NCBI GenBank assembly: GCA_029856425.1
Contig: JAHQWZ010000001.1
Location: forward strand, 1 to 47,989
Source of the DNA: Candidatus Thorarchaeota archaeon
GTDB lineage: Archaea; Asgardarchaeota; Thorarchaeia; Thorarchaeales; Thorarchaeaceae
Reading direction: 5' to 3'
DNA length: 47,989 nt
The notes under the pieces were generated by a model. The model saw only the letters and a program-made list of their open reading frames with translations. It was not told where the DNA came from and did no database searches. Positions within the stretch are counted from its first letter, which is position 1, and each line of letters begins with the position of its first letter. A program made the translations under genes and the position numbers. This document shows, one piece after another, positions 5,871-15,960 of the stretch.

Positions 5871-6950
5871 GTGAGTGAGGATATTCAAACTAAGCTTGAG
5901 CTGAATACTGATATTGAGAAGCCTATGCAATCAGGAAAGGCACTTGGAATCTTCGAGAAGTACCTGCCCCTCTGGGTTGCAATCTGCATGGTTATTGGAA
6001 TTCTTCTTTCACTGACTATCCCCGGCATAGGAGAGGCAATCGATTCTTGGAAGGTTGGGAATATCTCAGTGCCCATCGGGATTTGTCTATTCCTGATGAT
6101 GTATCCAGCAATGCTCAATATCCAAGCATCCGAGTTGAAGAAACTTGGTCGAAATCCAAAGCCCATCATTCTAACATTGTTCTCAAACTGGATCATTGCC
6201 CCCATTGTTGGATTTGCCCTTGCGAATCTTTTCTTAGCTGGGAATGAGCAACTGATAGTGGCGATAATCCTGCTTTCCTCAAGTCCTTGTACTGCAATGG
6301 TCCTAGTATGGGGATACCTAGCTGAGGGAAACCAAGAACAAAATGTAGTAAATACAAGTCTTAACACAGCCACAATAATCATCCTCTATGCACCCATTGT
6401 TGCACTTCTCACAGGAATATCAGCCATTCCTCTCGATCAATGGGCATTGTTTGTTTCAGTGCTTGTATTCATAGGAATCCCTTTGGTGCTTGGAATCATT
6501 ACAAGGAAATCACTCATCCCTTGGAAAGGAATAGAATGGTTTGATAACAAGTATCGTCCAGCTGTAGGTAAACTGGCACTGCTAGCCCTCCTGACCACTC
6601 TGGTTGTGCTTTTCTCCTTGAACGGGAGAGTCATGCTGGAGAATCCGGACCTCCTAGTTCTGATTTCAATCCCACTCTTGATTGGATTTGCCATAGTCGT
6701 CTGCTATAACCTCCTTGTGACACGAATGGCAAACCTCGCCTACAGAGAGGGTGTGATTACTGTCATCATTGGCTCGTCAAGCCACTTTGAGATCGCTATC
6801 GCTACAGCAATCGCAATCTATGGAGTTGGATCTATAGCTGCACTTGGAACAACTATGGGGCTATTCTGGGAAGTGCCAGTGATGTTGGGCATTGTCTATT
6901 TAGGCAAGTATCTGCGAAAGAGAAGCTATTGGAAAGGAAAACCACTGTAG
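5871..6950 (+). CDS. acr3: ACR3-family arsenite efflux permease
   Basis: GTG start. FEKYLPLWVAICMVIG, LMMYPAM, SNWIIAPIVGFAL and SSSPCTAMVLVW (conserved Cys) are typical of ACR3. About 10 TM helices. Confidence 0.85.
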   Translation: MSEDIQTKLELNTDIEKPMQSGKALGIFEKYLPLWVAICMVIGILLSLTIPGIGEAIDSWKVGNISVPIGICLFLMMYPAMLNIQASELKKLGRNPKPIILTLFSNWIIAPIVGFALANLFLAGNEQLIVAIILLSSSPCTAMVLVWGYLAEGNQEQNVVNTSLNTATIIILYAPIVALLTGISAIPLDQWALFVSVLVFIGIPLVLGIITRKSLIPWKGIEWFDNKYRPAVGKLALLALLTTLVVLFSLNGRVMLENPDLLVLISIPLLIGFAIVVCYNLLVTRMANLAYREGVITVIIGSSSHFEIAIATAIAIYGVGSIAALGTTMGLFWEVPVMLGIVYLGKYLRKRSYWKGKPL

Positions 6951-6979
6951 TTTCGAATCATTATAGAGAGTGATACTAG

Positions 6980-7276
6980 ATGACCATTAATAAGGAGAAT
7001 TTATGGAGAGCGAATTTTCACAAAGCCCTTGGCAACCCGGTGCGGTTAGAGATTGTGGACTTTCTATTGGGTGGTGAACAATGCCAGTGTGATATCTTCC
7101 CTCGCATTGGTCTGGCTCAGTCAACAGTTTCTGCATATCTAACTCAGATGGTCCGAGCTGGTGTATTGCGTGTGCGAAAGGATGGTGTCAGGAAGCTCTA
7201 TAGAATCAGTGATCTCAAAGTTCAGAGGCTGATAGAGCAGAATCGCAATCTTGCTCGAGAGATGGTAGATCTATAA
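6980..7276 (+). CDS. arsR: ArsR/SmtB-family metalloregulator
   Basis: FHKALGNPVRLEIVDFLLGGEQCQCDI (CxC metalloid site in an ELCVCDL-like position) followed by an HTH. Directly downstream of acr3. Confidence 0.85.
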   Translation: MTINKENLWRANFHKALGNPVRLEIVDFLLGGEQCQCDIFPRIGLAQSTVSAYLTQMVRAGVLRVRKDGVRKLYRISDLKVQRLIEQNRNLAREMVDL

Positions 7277-7328
7277 TCATCATTCTGAACCGACCAGACG
7301 CAGGAATTAATTTACATAGTAGAGGTTT

Positions 7329-7785
7329 CTATGAGATAGAGCATTTGTAGAAACACGTTTCTCTCACTGCTGAGTACTCTCTCATTTGCTGGCCGTCCGA
7401 CCTTGTGAGCCTAAATGCTCCCACGAAAAGAATCAATGGGCCAATAACCAGGATGGGTGTAATGGCGGCAAGCATACCAAGAATGACACTCTCCAAAAAG
7501 ATGCCTGACCTGAATTCGATGGTAAAGTCAAGTATGGTGGCGAACATGGGGATGATTAGAGCTGAAACTGTATTCGTAGTGAAGGCTGAACTCTTTGTGT
7601 CTTCGTACGCCGGATTTACAGCTGTGATTCGAATACCGAATAGTATTGTGATGCAGAGAACCAGATATGCGTGTACCAGTACCATTGGTTTCCTTGACTT
7701 GAAGAGTTAGACTATCAATTGCATGAATCTTACCAAAATGCTTAGTCAACCCCTCAGCCAGAAAAACAGCGGCCTCTGTATTCAT
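7329..7785 (-). pseudogene. deletion remnant of an ABC-2 transporter operon (ATPase N-terminus joined out of frame to a membrane-protein tail)
   Basis: ORF 7528..7785 begins VFLAEGLTKHFGKIHAIDSLTLQVKE, the pre-Walker-A strand of an ABC ATPase. No Walker A follows. About 100 nt in, a different frame (7329..7685) encodes a 3-TM hydrophobic tail. Confidence 0.45.
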
Positions 7786-7937
7786 GGGACTTCACCTGAT
7801 TCCTATCTACTAGATTCCTCCATCTCGGCATTGGTGCTGCTCAACGCTGTTTCAGCATCTTCCAAATGAAGGAGCTTTTAATATCATGCAGCGGAGGGAG
7901 ATGCGTCTGCAATTTCTGAGGTCATGATAGCGTGAGC

Positions 7938-8354
7938 CTATTTTTCAAGGAGTGTACGGAAGATGTTATGATGGTCTTCCTCATCAGCCAGAATGTCTTC
8001 AAACAACTCTCGTGTGACGTAGTCCTTCTCGTTCGCTGCCTTCTCGATAATTGTGCGATAGAAATCCATTGTCTCCTCTTCAGCCATCATATCGTTGGTG
8101 ATCATCGATTCCGGAGTGTCACCAACAGTGATTTTTGCAGGATTTGTTGTGGGTATACCTCCAAGGTAATCCACACGTTCAGCTATGCTTTCTGCATGCT
8201 GCATCTCCTCAATTGCAATCTTCTTGAGTTCCTCAGCGATAGCGAGGTGATTGAATCCATAGATCCTCACATGCTGCCACATGTATTGGATGGATACTTG
8301 TAGCTCCAAACTGATCGCCTTGTTCAACATTTCAATAAGGTCTTTCGATGTCAT
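7938..8354 (-). CDS. bacterioferritin/ferritin-like four-helix-bundle protein
   Basis: LNKAISLELQVSIQYMWQH ... EEMQHAESIAERV ... AEEETM ... ADEEDHH gives di-iron E/ExxH ligand spacing. GGAGGT lies 5 nt upstream of the ATG. Confidence 0.8.
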   Translation of the reverse strand: MTSKDLIEMLNKAISLELQVSIQYMWQHVRIYGFNHLAIAEELKKIAIEEMQHAESIAERVDYLGGIPTTNPAKITVGDTPESMITNDMMAEEETMDFYRTIIEKAANEKDYVTRELFEDILADEEDHHNIFRTLLEK

Positions 8355-12201: not shown

Positions 12202-12783
12202 CTAAATTGCCACCGTTTTTGACTTCTTTTTATCCCAGCCTAACTTCTTTGCCTTCTTGAAGGCAGAGCTCGCCTCATCGTATCGACCCAATATCCACAG
12301 GGCAAGTCGAAGCTGATTCCATAGCTCGGGATCATTTGGCTTCTTTTCAAGCTCGACCGATAGTCCCTTTTCCATTCTTCCGTATCTTTCAATCTCTCTT
12401 TGACTTGCTACCTGAGCCGCCCTGAGAACTCCGCTTACGAACTCTCCAGGGCGTTCTAGAACATAGGATTGAAATTCCATGGGTGTTTCTTTGAGAAATG
12501 AGCTGATCGTAGCTCCAGGTGTGTCCTTCTCCCGCCGAAGGTCGCCGTCTAATAATCGACGCTCATAATCACTTTGCATGAAATTGAGAAGTTCCTCCAA
12601 ATGGACTACAACTGGATCATTCTCACCAAGATTCTCGTTAGCCCTCTGCCACTCATAGTATACTACTTCAGTACCAATTGTGTATAAACCGCTAGGCGTT
12701 AGATTCATTTTCTTCAAGTCATTAAGGAGAGTCCTCACAGTATAGATATCTCTGATAGGAATTTTACGGCTCATTTCATTCAT
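12202..12783 (-). CDS. hypothetical protein with TPR-like C-terminal helix pair
   Basis: C-terminus reads PELWNQLRLALWILGRYDEASSAFKKAKKLG, which is TPR-like. The N-terminal domain is unassigned. Confidence 0.5.
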   Translation of the reverse strand: MNEMSRKIPIRDIYTVRTLLNDLKKMNLTPSGLYTIGTEVVYYEWQRANENLGENDPVVVHLEELLNFMQSDYERRLLDGDLRREKDTPGATISSFLKETPMEFQSYVLERPGEFVSGVLRAAQVASQREIERYGRMEKGLSVELEKKPNDPELWNQLRLALWILGRYDEASSAFKKAKKLGWDKKKSKTVAI

Positions 12784-12819: not shown

Positions 12820-13362
12820 CTATCTCAGCTCTCCAGTTATCCCACTCACAATTCGAATGATTCCCACGGTTATCATCGCAGCAGACAGTAGTAGAATCAG
12901 GGTATAGAAGCCTAGGCCTGGAAATACTGCTGCTAGGAACCCGAAGCTGAATGCGATAATACCTCCACCTATGTAGAGAGCTCTAGCCCATGTGGCCATT
13001 CCCTTCTCCAAATGACCTACTACTATTCTTGACATTCCCATTAGCATGATTGCAAAGGTCACCATTGTAACCAAGAATGTGATTGCGAGGTCAGGAAATA
13101 GAATCACACCCATTGATAGCACCGTTGCTAAAACGCCTACAGTTCCTTTGGTAATACGGGCTCTAGTGTCAAGTCGCTTCATGAATATGGTCTTAATAAT
13201 CCTGACGAATCCCACAACTGCCAAAGCAATTGCAATCGTCAAGACTATGGTTCGTTGTGCCAAGGAGGGGTCCAAGACAATCCACAAGCTCACCGCAACT
13301 ATAACAAGCCCTATCACTAAATCAAGGCCTCTTGACCAGCTTGGATAATACTCAGAAGACAT
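12820..13362 (-). CDS. DUF308/HdeD-like membrane protein (paralogue)
   Basis: Same six-TM architecture, ending GIIRIVSGITGELR. Confidence 0.65.
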   Translation of the reverse strand: MSSEYYPSWSRGLDLVIGLVIVAVSLWIVLDPSLAQRTIVLTIAIALAVVGFVRIIKTIFMKRLDTRARITKGTVGVLATVLSMGVILFPDLAITFLVTMVTFAIMLMGMSRIVVGHLEKGMATWARALYIGGGIIAFSFGFLAAVFPGLGFYTLILLLSAAMITVGIIRIVSGITGELR

Positions 13363-13447
13363 ATTTCATCACTGGCAACACTTCATAATGAGGATTTTGT
13401 CTTGCCATTTCCTCAGGTCATTCTGCAGTCTAGTTTCACAGGACAAA

Positions 13448-13885
13448 CTATGAGACCTCCTCTTGCCCTTCATATTGATTTAGTCCTATTAGGAACTCAA
13501 ATGGATCTCCATCCACCATTTCCGCTGACAACCGAAGAGCGAATATATCATGTTGCATTGGTGCGAAATTCAGTTCAACATCACCTGATATCAGTACTCT
13601 CTTCAAGCTCATGTGGGGCGGCCATTGACCAGTCCTTTGGATGTAGTCCATAGCACGATTTGACAGAATCTCGCTGGCAATTCTTTTGTTTATTCTAACT
13701 AGGCCTTTTTCACTTACGATGCCGAAGGAAGTGTTACTATCGCTCATTCCGCGTTTGGAAATTGTGTTTGTCTTTCTCAAGATAATTGAGTTGATAGAAG
13801 CGCGTTTCTTGACTCGTTCAACAGCGAAAGTATCGGCATCTATCGAGTATGCTCGACCAAAATCAATCTCCACCCAATCTACCAT
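13448..13885 (-). CDS. hypothetical protein; paralogue of the N-terminal domain of the zf-PARP protein
   Basis: MVDWVEIDF..VKKRA..SFGIVSEKGLV..AMDYI..WPPHMSLKRVLISGDVE aligns by eye with IVDWVAIES..VKKRA..SLGIVGETGIV..ALDYM..WPPFTSMKRVLNSGDVE of 14423..15181. Confidence 0.6.
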   Translation of the reverse strand: MVDWVEIDFGRAYSIDADTFAVERVKKRASINSIILRKTNTISKRGMSDSNTSFGIVSEKGLVRINKRIASEILSNRAMDYIQRTGQWPPHMSLKRVLISGDVELNFAPMQHDIFALRLSAEMVDGDPFEFLIGLNQYEGQEEVS

Positions 13886-13977
13886 TGATTTGCACTCTCT
13901 GCCTTCTTGCCAAGTATTACAGATACTTCGCTATTCTCAGTATATAATCTGGGGGATTGATTTCAAGGAATCCCAAT

Positions 13978-14400
13978 CTAGTCTATCCTGACCTTGTACC
14001 CCTTGCCTTCCTTCGTGTCAGTAGTCTTTAGCGTGATTTCTAGAATTCCATTGTTGAAACTAGCTTTGACCTTTGTAGGCTCAATTTCCTTCGAAAGGGA
14101 GAAAATTCTCTTATACTTCCGGGTTTCACTCTCAGCTACAATAATCAGAGTCGACCTGGTGACCGTGATTTCTATCTCATCTTTGCTAACGCCCGGTAGC
14201 TCAAATGTCACTATGGTGTCACCGGTCTTTTCGTCAACTCTCATCTCAGATAGCGGAGTTCGAAAACCTTCCTCCAGTCTTTTTGTCCATTCCAATGGAT
14301 ATCTCATCATTGACCTGAATGCTCTTTCTAAATCTGACAGACCAAATACATCGAATGGATTTCGTCTTTCAACAATGTCTCTTTTCTCGTCATCACTCAT
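13978..14400 (-). CDS. hsp20: Hsp20/alpha-crystallin small heat-shock protein
   Basis: IVTFELPGVSKDEIEITV ... FNNGILEITL is an alpha-crystallin domain. Start chosen at 14400 (MSDDEKRD) because GGAGGGGG lies upstream. Confidence 0.85.
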   Translation of the reverse strand: MSDDEKRDIVERRNPFDVFGLSDLERAFRSMMRYPLEWTKRLEEGFRTPLSEMRVDEKTGDTIVTFELPGVSKDEIEITVTRSTLIIVAESETRKYKRIFSLSKEIEPTKVKASFNNGILEITLKTTDTKEGKGYKVRID

Positions 14401-14422
14401 TGATTGTTCCCCCTCCGGGTTC

Positions 14423-15181
14423 CTAATTTGCAAGAAGCCGTTTCAGCCGCTGTCTATCTTCTGATTTGAGAAAATCATATCCATCCAGCTTTTCGATTTC
14501 AGATGCGTCTATCCTTTTCGCAACACATCTTGGATGGTGCCATCTGTAAGAGAGCTTTTCTTCATAGAAATAGGGTTCACCTATTCGTAGTCTACGCTCC
14601 AAAATAACATCTTTGCACGTGCGGCATTTTGACCTTCCAGATTTAGCAGTTTCAACTTTCCATAATGGTTCTTTTGGTGTTTCATGTTTCTTTAACCGAC
14701 TTAGAAAATCGCTTGGATCTTCCCCAACCATCTCTTTAGTCAATGGGAGTACAAAGGAGTCATACTCAGTGGGCTCATAGTAGACCTCCACGTCTCCCGA
14801 ATTTAGGACTCTTTTCATTGAAGTGAATGGCGGCCATCTCTTCTTCCAGCGCATGTAATCAAGAGCCTGTTTGGCAAGTGTATCACTTGCATCTTTCTTT
14901 TTTAACGCGACTATTCCCGTTTCTCCAACTATGCCCAATGAAGACTTGACATATGTTCTCTCTTCATCATCAAGCGTTTCCCTGCTCTTCAACACAATGA
15001 CTGTGCCAACAGGAGCACGTTTCTTCACATGCTTGAAGCTGAAGGATTCTGGGTCTACCCAGTATGCCCACTCGGATTCAATAGCAACCCAATCCACTAT
15101 TCCCATGTTTTGTTGATTTCCTTTAGGTCGAGAATGGTTTACACTTCCCTTCAGCACGTCGTCCACCCATATTGCATACAA
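14423..15181 (-). CDS. unknown N-terminal domain fused to a C-terminal PARP-type zinc finger
   Basis: C-terminus AKSGRSKCRTCKDVILERRLRIG...YRWHHPRCV...LDGYDFLKSEDRQRL gives CX2C-X26-HX2C. By homology with the paralogue, the start may instead be MGIVDW at 15106. Confidence 0.7.
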   Translation of the reverse strand: MYAIWVDDVLKGSVNHSRPKGNQQNMGIVDWVAIESEWAYWVDPESFSFKHVKKRAPVGTVIVLKSRETLDDEERTYVKSSLGIVGETGIVALKKKDASDTLAKQALDYMRWKKRWPPFTSMKRVLNSGDVEVYYEPTEYDSFVLPLTKEMVGEDPSDFLSRLKKHETPKEPLWKVETAKSGRSKCRTCKDVILERRLRIGEPYFYEEKLSYRWHHPRCVAKRIDASEIEKLDGYDFLKSEDRQRLKRLLAN

Positions 15182-15201
15182 TTGTATTCATACGTATGCA
15201 A
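15172..15201. promoter_or_regulatory. nested palindromes TTGCATACAATTGTA / CATACGTATG (outer arms TTGCATAC...GTATGCAA)
   Basis: Read directly. Lies just downstream, in the minus sense, of the TATA-like TTATAAAT at 15217-15224, at the head of the zf-PARP/hsp20 genes. Confidence 0.5.
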
Positions 15202-15294
15202 AATGTAATCAAATAGTTATAAATCTGTTTACAGACTATTTGGTGGCCGCTGTCTTTACAATGCCTGAATTTACAGAGATAATACTCAGGAACC

Positions 15295-15465
15295 TCAAGA
15301 AGACCTCCGATTGTTAGCCCTATCAATTTCCTCATGATGATCGAGATGAGATCGTATTGCTTCTCTCACAAAGGAGGCAAAGCCCTTCCAGGATTCTTTC
15401 TTCTCCAAATTCTCAAAACGATTCTTTAGTTCTTTTGGCACTCTAATCATAATGTCGCTAGTCAT
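15295..15465 (-). CDS. ribbon-helix-helix (CopG/Arc/MetJ-type) DNA-binding protein
   Basis: MTSDIMIRVPKELKNRFENL ... SFVREAIRSHL is an RHH pattern. The internal start at 15465 has AGGAAG 8 nt upstream. Confidence 0.65.
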   Translation of the reverse strand: MTSDIMIRVPKELKNRFENLEKKESWKGFASFVREAIRSHLDHHEEIDRANNRRSS

Positions 15466-15496: not shown

Positions 15497-15545
15497 TTGC
15501 ATACAATTGTAGATATATTTATATACATTTTGTTTACATACGTAT
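15497..15545. promoter_or_regulatory. second copy of TTGCATACAATTGTA plus an ATACGTAT palindrome flanking a TATA-like box
   Basis: 15497-15511 is identical to 15172-15186. ATATATTTATATA is at 15513-15525 and ATACGTAT at 15538-15545. Upstream of the RHH gene, divergent from 15586..15960. Confidence 0.5.
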
Positions 15546-15585
15546 ACATTGGTTCTGATGACTTCATAGTCAGAGCCAGATTGAG

Positions 15586-15960
15586 GTGAATTCTACATTG
15601 CCATTGAGATTCCTAACAAGACTGAGAAAGGGTGCCGGTCATTACAATGTATTCTATGTGCCGAGATATGTTAAGGAGTTCTATGGTCTCAGGACCGGGA
15701 GCTATAAGGGTGGAGTTACTTTGAAGGATGGTACAACGGCGGGCTATAGGATTAGCCTATCACCACATAGGAATACCTTTCGGGGTCGTGTTCCAGAGTC
15801 AGCAGGTTTTCCTGGAAGCATTGTTGAGGTATGGATGTACCCACACACATGGATGCAATCTATCAACATACCGATTCAATCTCTTGAAATTAGATCCGAA
15901 GGGCCAATACCGAGCTTTGCATATCCTGATACATTCAGAACAAATTACAGGCAAAGATGA
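15586..15960 (+). CDS. hypothetical protein
   Basis: ORF with a GTG start (or in-frame TTG at 15598, preceded by GAGGTGA). No confident family assignment. Confidence 0.35.
   Translation: MNSTLPLRFLTRLRKGAGHYNVFYVPRYVKEFYGLRTGSYKGGVTLKDGTTAGYRISLSPHRNTFRGRVPESAGFPGSIVEVWMYPHTWMQSINIPIQSLEIRSEGPIPSFAYPDTFRTNYRQR

Follow-up and report, generated by a model that had tools for sequence, protein, structure and literature searches.

A predicted orphan domain, joined to a PARP-type zinc finger in one of two copies, flanks a small heat-shock protein gene in an Asgard archaeon

The window, by which we mean the whole 47,989-nt stretch of DNA analysed here, comes from an Asgard (Thorarchaeia-like) archaeon whose own genome is 74.5% complete, and carries three consecutive minus-strand genes: open reading frame (ORF) B, hsp20 (encoding an HSP20/alpha-crystallin small heat-shock protein, sHSP) and ORF A. 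As judged by profile matches and predicted structure, the C-terminus of ORF B is a genuine PARP-type zinc finger (zf-PARP), and the domain that precedes it, here called X and present without the finger in ORF A, is an undescribed, beta-rich orphan domain with no detectable sequence or fold relative. The PARP-type zinc finger recognises nicked and broken DNA in PARP1 and DNA ligase III (Lig3) and is treated as a eukaryotic DNA-break sensor, and eukaryotes are thought to have emerged from the Asgard phylum. X-zf-PARP is a wider, undescribed family. The trio in the window consists of:

14423..15157 (mechanical ORF to TTG 15181), minus strand: ORF B, with the X domain at ~14669-15100 and the C-terminal PARP-type zinc finger at 14435-14653
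13978..14400, minus strand: hsp20, 140 aa, recognised by its PF00011 match
13448..13885, minus strand: ORF A, the finger-less X-domain paralogue, 145 aa, characterised by BLASTP, an AlphaFold2 (AF2) model and a tree

As originally proposed, ORF A and the N-terminal part of ORF B are paralogous: BLASTP aligns them with 59 of 144 residues identical (41%), 65% positives and a single 1-residue gap (E 8e-39), and the blocks that had been picked out by eye (DWV.I, VKKRA, S.GIV.E.G.V, A.DY, WPP..S.KRVL.SGDVE and DP..FL) are all visible in the alignment. The mechanical ORF list gives consecutive minus-strand ORFs at 14423..15181 (252 aa, TTG start), 13978..14433 and 13448..13885 (145 aa). The hsp20 gene runs from ATG 14400, preceded by GGAGGGGG inside the gap after ORF B, to a stop at 13978, and coordinates and PF00011 score (45.5 bits, cut-off 20.8) agree that it lies between the two copies, separated by 22 nt from ORF B (14401-14422) and by 92 nt from ORF A (13886-13977), all on the minus strand. 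The limits first given for the genes therefore stand for ORF A and for both gaps, but not for the end of ORF B at 15181: its start is most likely GTG 15157 or ATG 15106 and not TTG 15181. The GTG is suggested by the orthologues, which open MLK.S.., together with a GGGTGG 7 nt upstream of it. The whole trio is present on single contigs from independent marine-sediment and seawater metagenomes (X2 record 8, 13324-15335; X3 record 14, 13141-15072), and the layout is therefore not an assembly artefact. Separately, a 97%-identical variant contig (metagenome X2 record 7) joins 13534 to 15300, is without most of ORF A, hsp20 and ORF B, and differs past 12802; since the junction side is just 36 nt long, it is a hint of strain-level presence or absence and not proof.

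The finger assignment draws on both sequence and model. Residues 177-249 of the long form of ORF B match zf-PARP (PF00645) with 57.4 bits against a cut-off of 39.3, with zinc ligands spaced C-x2-C-x26-H-x2-C and the motifs AKSGRS.C, LR.G and W.H..C. The finger aligns equally to PARP1 Zn1 and Zn2, and Foldseek matches its predicted fold to PARP1 Zn1/Zn2 and the Lig3 fingers (E 1e-6 to 1e-3, TMt 0.65-0.78). ORF A has no zf-PARP match: it ends 10 aa past the X domain, and the next gene follows after 85 nt. The early observation that one finger-bearing and one finger-less copy flank a chaperone gene is thus borne out, with PF00645 in ORF B and none in ORF A. PF00645 occurs in 94 of the 301 genomes of the Asgard phylum (~31%) and in 0 of 14 control genomes. 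In families of the phylum other than the X-bearing ones (loci L070, L071, L073, L074 and L075) it is found in Zn-OB-Zn, Zn-?-Zn and Zn-OB proteins, the OB fold of which is Ssb-like (PF21473, E 2e-13); this fusion to single-stranded-DNA-binding OB folds in sister lineages supports a role of the finger at DNA lesions or single-stranded DNA. None of the zf-PARP proteins of the phylum has a PARP or ligase domain, and full-text searches of a paper library returned no paper on zf-PARP in archaea.

X is the ~140-aa domain common to ORF A and the N-terminal part of ORF B. No Pfam family could be assigned to it, NCBIfam and PADLOC gave no match, a profile search of PDB sequences matched the finger and not X, and BFVD holds no X fold match, all of which agrees with the original remark that the shared domain could not be placed in a family. 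The AF2 models are confident (pLDDT 92.7 for ORF B; pLDDT 87.3 and pTM 0.80 for ORF A) and, as assigned by DSSP, show X as seven beta-strands, a 19-residue helix, three further strands and two short helices. Among the Foldseek matches listed against the PDB, none to X in either model had E<0.02 and none was a WGR chain; the ORF A model had no match with E<0.05, and the best X match reached E 0.05, probability 0.14 and TM 0.19, ORF B retrieving PARP1 and Lig3 fingers only. The EVH1/PH-like and lipocalin chains that top these lists have TM<=0.2, are not significant and were set aside as noise. The best-conserved positions across 106 domain sequences look mostly structural (the Trp of EWAYW, WPP, the F of YD.F, several Leu and Pro), and two Lys and one Asp are conserved as well. 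With a median isoelectric point of 6.9, X does not look like a basic nucleic-acid binder.

WGR and zf-PARP domains co-occur in PARP1, and X had been tentatively taken for a divergent WGR domain; ORF B would then be a mini-PARP1 that binds DNA through finger and WGR but lacks the catalytic domain. We consider this very improbable. The likeness behind it, a SFGIVxExG hairpin followed by a long helix in X and FGKIGTxG followed by a helix in genuine WGRs, maps to the beta6-beta7 hairpin and the 19-residue helix of the X model, and is therefore local only. No match to the WGR model PF05406 (gathering score 22 bits) was found at E<=10 among 41 X-family members, nor at E<=1 for ORF A or ORF B, and a six-frame scan of the window's own genome with the same model gave 0 matches. 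PF05406 does, however, detect genuine stand-alone WGR proteins of ~80 aa in 11 of 151 genomes of the phylum, all belonging to the window's own family, with the pattern FW..E..G..VTIHFGKIGT.G..S.EF....AA..F......K...GY; these loci are never X genes. Aligned by hhalign to those WGRs, a 36-sequence X alignment gave 0.3% probability (E 0.19) over 15 unrelated columns, and the sizes differ (X ~140 aa with 10 strands, WGR ~80 aa). The WGR assignment was rejected on hidden Markov model, profile-profile and fold searches, and placement in another well-characterised family was likewise not found. The idea that X might be an OB fold related to the stretch between the two fingers of the Zn-?-Zn proteins was also discarded (hhalign probability 0.25%). 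As a side observation, none of the stand-alone WGR proteins (L056-L066) adjoins a zf-PARP gene, so that WGR and PARP finger coexist unlinked in these archaea.

Sequence matches to the family carry the organism names Promethearchaeota archaeon or Thorarchaeota archaeon. An exhaustive HMMER search of 1.84 billion representative proteins retrieved only 33 X clusters at E<=1e-3; two long repetitive matches (P0051 and P0076) were compositional and set aside. X is carried by 71 of the 301 sampled genomes of the phylum, usually as one copy and with the finger, and the window's own genome has two X copies and one zf-PARP match. Nearly all longer relatives are X followed by zf-PARP. Three representatives are X-X-zf-PARP tandems (both X copies at E<=1e-15), several are finger-less singletons, and a few GC-rich or TIGR02996-bearing proteins with N-terminal extensions look bacterial. 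A clear finger-less copy is present in four genomes, each of which also has a finger-bearing one.

Within the window's family, a maximum-likelihood tree resolves four X clades: the ORF-B clade (support 99/96), a finger-less clade of nine sequences including ORF A (100/99), a clade with the second X copy, a finger-bearing one, of the complete Thorarchaeota genome CP070761 (L001), and a broad clade of single-copy members. The sister group of the ORF-B clade is the finger-less clade (93/90), which favours local duplication followed by finger loss. The alternative, that the finger-less copy derives from a second copy of the CP070761 type, which likewise sits after hsp20, was not rejected by the approximately unbiased (AU) test (p 0.124). 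The nine members of the finger-less clade are intact, 50-75% identical, and keep K38, K67, WPP and D113/F115.

The trio or its core recurs in relatives, so that the refuting outcome named at first, a trio conserved in no relative, does not apply. In the window its surroundings are:

15174..15223, minus strand: X-zf-PARP promoter and putative operator, with TATA box TTTATAAC at 15223-15216 and GTATAC-type hexamers at 15199-15194, 15189-15184 and 15179-15174
15295..15465, minus strand: ribbon-helix-helix (RHH) gene, 56 aa, putative local repressor (RHH_1 15.3 bits, under the cut-off of 20.5)
15499..15547, minus strand: RHH promoter, with TATA box TATATAAA at 15525-15518 and GTATAC-type hexamers at -22, -12 and +21
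15598..15957, plus strand: divergent conserved gene, 119 aa, without a family, always adjoining the RHH gene
12820-13362, minus strand: DUF308 membrane protein, downstream and co-directional, recurring within the cluster in relatives
12202-12783, minus strand: 193-aa TPR-tail protein, downstream and co-directional, recurring within the cluster in relatives

The RHH gene and the divergent 119-aa gene lie upstream of the ORF-B-clade gene in all 9 of the independent loci with a visible upstream side, and hsp20 follows the ORF-B-clade gene after 15-28 nt in 7 of 10 loci from three genera. A second X gene lies downstream in the window, in L001 (with the finger), in L002 and in two same-genus genomes (G230 and G248). 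The orders vary: CP070761 has RHH, TPR-tail protein, X-zf-PARP, HSP20 and a second X-zf-PARP, preceded, as is the cluster in the window, by CorA and MFS genes; a Promethearchaeota contig (L002) has RHH, X-zf-PARP, HSP20, a 558-aa transthyretin-like/zincin-like protein and a finger-less X; G230 and G248 have X-zf-PARP, a zincin-like protein (485 aa) and a finger-less X, without hsp20; one same-genus genome has X-zf-PARP alone; and four further loci in two genera have X-zf-PARP followed by hsp20. While the pair of finger-bearing and finger-less copies around a chaperone gene is real, the full sandwich is confined to the window, L001 and L002, and is a lineage-specific variant of a wider X-zf-PARP/RHH/hsp20 association and not a general layout. 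The hsp20 product itself scores 83.9 bits against archaeal Hsp20 (NF041800), below the equivalog cut-off of 140, and genus relatives carry another hsp20 elsewhere, with or without the cluster copy, which makes the cluster gene an accessory paralogue. In the other X clades, X-zf-PARP genes have no RHH, 119-aa or hsp20 neighbours and no conserved neighbourhood; their neighbours differ among genera, the recurrent ones being generic multi-copy genes (PAS histidine kinases, LRR, NosD beta-helix), and gave no pointer to function. The contexts of the tandem X-X-zf-PARP members, of the bacterial-like members and of the G206 finger-less copy were uninformative.

The protein between the X genes in some relatives deserves a description of its own. 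It is 485-558 aa long, with a transthyretin-like N-terminal part and the motif AHHFGHMLGL(E/V)DEY (L036 4348-5805, L037 ~6760-8300, L002 4320-5996). In the 485-aa form the zincin-like motif reads AHHFGHMLGLEDEY, with a His in place of the catalytic Glu; this HExxH Glu-to-His replacement is found in all three proteins, and the Pfam peptidase matches are below cut-off.

Promoters were aligned over nine loci (the window, L001, L002, L007-L010, L036 and L037). The X-zf-PARP promoter has a conserved GTA(A/G)ACAA(A/G)TTTATAAC block (B recognition element and TATA box), followed by GTATAC-type hexamers in 10-bp steps at +25 and +35 after the TATA box and, in 4 of the 9 loci, at +45. All nine loci also have the hexamers at -22, -12 and +21 around the TATA box of the RHH promoter. 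In total, the 1332 nt of both promoters over the 9 loci hold 27 exact GTATAC, whereas the genome-wide rate predicts 0.18. Palindromic hexamers spaced by one helical turn over the expected start site would suit an RHH repressor. A 15-mer common to both window promoters is present in two exact copies, three matches being obtained in 0 of 100 shuffles, and in the window's 74%-complete genome the operator and promoter blocks were found at the two local promoters only, so that the idea of an RHH regulon elsewhere in this genome was dropped. Upstream of the second X gene, the window and L001 share no conserved promoter or operator. About 140 nt separate the RHH stop from ORF B, which is served by a promoter of its own; no oligo-T run on the minus strand between 15300 and 12000 interrupts the row of ORF B, hsp20, ORF A, DUF308 and TPR genes. 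The 119-aa protein (MPLRFLTRL.KGAG.Y..FYVP.YVKEFYGL...) is divergently paired with the RHH gene in every locus examined; its identity between genera is 60-70%, and neither Pfam, NCBIfam nor the PDB offers a relative. As a side observation, CP070761 has a second RHH copy (L001 1397-1543), 73% identical to the window's, directly upstream of the cluster-adjoining MFS transporter gene.

We tentatively favour, at somewhat short of an even chance, a composite reading in which the cluster is an RHH-repressed, probably stress-inducible module that places an X-dimerised PARP-type finger protein on DNA lesions, with the finger-less protein as partner or modulator. The cluster would be locally regulated and probably stress-inducible: the 56-aa RHH protein would bind the 10-bp-spaced GTATAC-type hexamers, which lie over the predicted start of the X-zf-PARP/hsp20 transcript and on both sides of the TATA box of the RHH gene itself, and so keep both promoters shut. 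We infer both this repression and the co-induction of the genes under stress, upon which X-zf-PARP, the dedicated sHSP paralogue and the finger-less X protein would be made together. X would act as a protein-protein (dimerisation) module, and X-X pairing would unite two fingers on a DNA lesion, as in PARP1 Zn1 and Zn2 and in the single-chain Zn-OB-Zn proteins of other Asgard families. Pairing of finger-less ORF A with ORF B could yield a one-fingered or modulated complex, and the sHSP could act as a holdase during that response. The sHSP, joined in relatives by the zincin-like protein, may add a protein-quality-control arm.

Several points weigh against this composite reading. X is missing from 8 of 14 same-genus genomes, and its link with hsp20 is therefore lineage-specific and dispensable; hsp20 in turn is lacking at 3 of the 10 ORF-B-clade loci and at every locus of the remaining X clades. 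Dimerisation of X is proposed by the logic of fusion and adjacency, and since X is non-basic at its median isoelectric point of 6.9 and shows no active site that could be recognised, its role is conjectural. The RHH_1 (PF01402) match of the putative repressor is weak (15.3 bits against 20.5, E 0.02), and the hexamers could be bound by the divergent 119-aa protein instead. The nine promoter sets are related sequences, so that the motif count reflects conservation and not nine independent events. The metagenomes that hold the locus are DNA datasets only. Finally, two Trp conserved in 73-83% of the 106 domain sequences are replaced in ORF A and its closest relative P0003 (GRAYS/CRKAYS at ORF A residues 11-14, 13844-13855, against EWAYW in the family), which on sequence could reflect relaxed constraint or a changed partner surface; ORF A may be degenerating.

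This last possibility belongs to a reading that we regard as unlikely but to be reckoned with, in which the sandwich has no joint function: a local tandem duplication would have arisen in a region of variable accessory genes, ORF A would be a remnant in decay after the loss of its finger, and hsp20 would be a bystander. It accounts for the restriction of the full trio to the window, L001 and L002, for the gene content between and after the X genes that varies among close relatives, for the 97%-identical strain variant that appears to be without 13535-15299, and for the two Trp missing from ORF A and P0003. It is harder to reconcile with nine intact finger-less members that are 50-75% identical and keep K38, K67, WPP and D113/F115, with an X-zf-PARP-hsp20 order kept at 15-28 nt gaps over three genera, or with the independent X-X fusions.

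Two further readings accept a joint function but assign it differently. In one, which we think distinctly unlikely, the cluster is a protein-quality-control module, with X as a chaperone or protease adaptor that the finger tethers to DNA or chromatin (for example, in clearing DNA-protein crosslinks or damaged chromatin proteins). A dedicated sHSP between the X genes, a transthyretin-like and zincin-like protein that fills the same slot in L002, G230 and G248 with or instead of hsp20, and the recurrent TPR-tail protein all fit this, but the zincin-like motif is HHFGH with the catalytic Glu replaced, Pfam peptidase matches stay below cut-off, contact between X and the sHSP is hypothetical, and neither a chaperone nor a protease gene adjoins most X-zf-PARP genes of the other clades. 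In the other, quite improbable in our view, X-zf-PARP is a transcription factor or sensor of the hsp20 operon: X would sense a signal, ORF A would be a decoy, and the GTATAC repeats would be its own sites or sites shared with RHH. The X-zf-PARP gene does come first in the operon to be regulated, the conserved operators could have a binder other than RHH, and the non-basic, beta-rich X with its long helix would suit a ligand or protein sensor. However, zf-PARP fingers, as in PARP1 and Lig3 and in keeping with the fold match of the ORF B finger, read DNA structure (nicks, ends) and not sequence, regulation is more simply ascribed to the RHH protein, a small DNA-binding protein of canonical type whose own promoter has the same motif, and X-zf-PARP genes elsewhere are without these motifs and neighbours. 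The composite reading can also be extended to a bolder claim, which we consider improbable: X-zf-PARP would represent archaeal sensing of DNA breaks or lesions that predates PARP1, eukaryotes having inherited the finger from an Asgard pool (X-Zn, X-X-Zn, Zn-OB-Zn), and in Thorarchaeia-like lineages the X-dimerised finger would couple lesion recognition to a dedicated sHSP (and the zincin-like protein), that is, to DNA-tethered protein quality control under a private RHH repressor.

The parallels with known systems are partial. As in PARP1 (Zn1-Zn2-Zn3-WGR) and with the Lig3-alpha finger, the C-terminal 75 aa of ORF B are a bona fide zf-PARP and, as in PARP1, the finger is joined to a second, non-catalytic domain. 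The differences are that ORF B has a single finger, at its C-terminus and not its N-terminus, and lacks PARP, ligase, BRCT, Zn3 and WGR domains. X, its partner domain, bears no relation to WGR; the organism is an archaeon, and the gene sits in an operon with an sHSP. The Asgard Zn-OB-Zn and Zn-OB proteins share with ORF B the phylum, the finger family, the absence of a catalytic domain, small size and two modules or fingers, whereas their partner is an Ssb-like OB (PF21473) and their finger N-terminal. The ibpAB operon of E. coli and the Phr-controlled hsp20 of Thermococcales are sHSP operons under a dedicated repressor. The window resembles these in having an sHSP in a short operon with a putative repressor-type operator over the start site, and differs in its GTATAC-type hexamers at 10-bp steps, in its 56-aa RHH candidate repressor and in that the first gene encodes a PARP-finger protein and not the chaperone. 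RHH-regulated type II toxin-antitoxin or accessory modules also come to mind, given a small RHH protein with weak similarity to RelB-like antitoxins (NF048017, E 4e-4), apparent autoregulation by way of repeated operators and a patchy distribution in close relatives; however, the RHH gene here is ~140-190 nt from ORF B and has its own promoter. A defence or toxin-antitoxin assignment was rejected, as no neighbour matches a toxin family or PADLOC and the RelB-like score of 20.5 bits falls well short of the cut-off (50).

The interest of the locus lies mostly in the orphan domain and in the breadth of catalytic-domain-free PARP-type fingers in Asgard archaea. The finger is frequent in the phylum from which eukaryotes probably arose, never with a PARP or ligase domain, and its commonest partner there is X, an orphan whose fold, though confidently predicted, has no counterpart in the PDB or BFVD; learning what X does would reveal how the finger was used before its recruitment to PARP1 and Lig3. 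In addition, regulation could be tested on a compact archaeal unit in this cluster, namely an RHH protein and periodic GTATAC putative operators on an sHSP operon. The analysis has corrective value, too: duplication and layout are real, the WGR assignment was wrong, and the sandwich is one lineage's version of the X-zf-PARP/RHH/hsp20 association.

The TPR-tail and DUF308 proteins travel with the cluster but change place: they precede X-zf-PARP in L001 (5269-5841) and follow the finger-less X in G230, G248 and the window. Another contig of the window's genome (C108, 3929-4495) encodes a further TPR-tail protein, 48% identical to the first.

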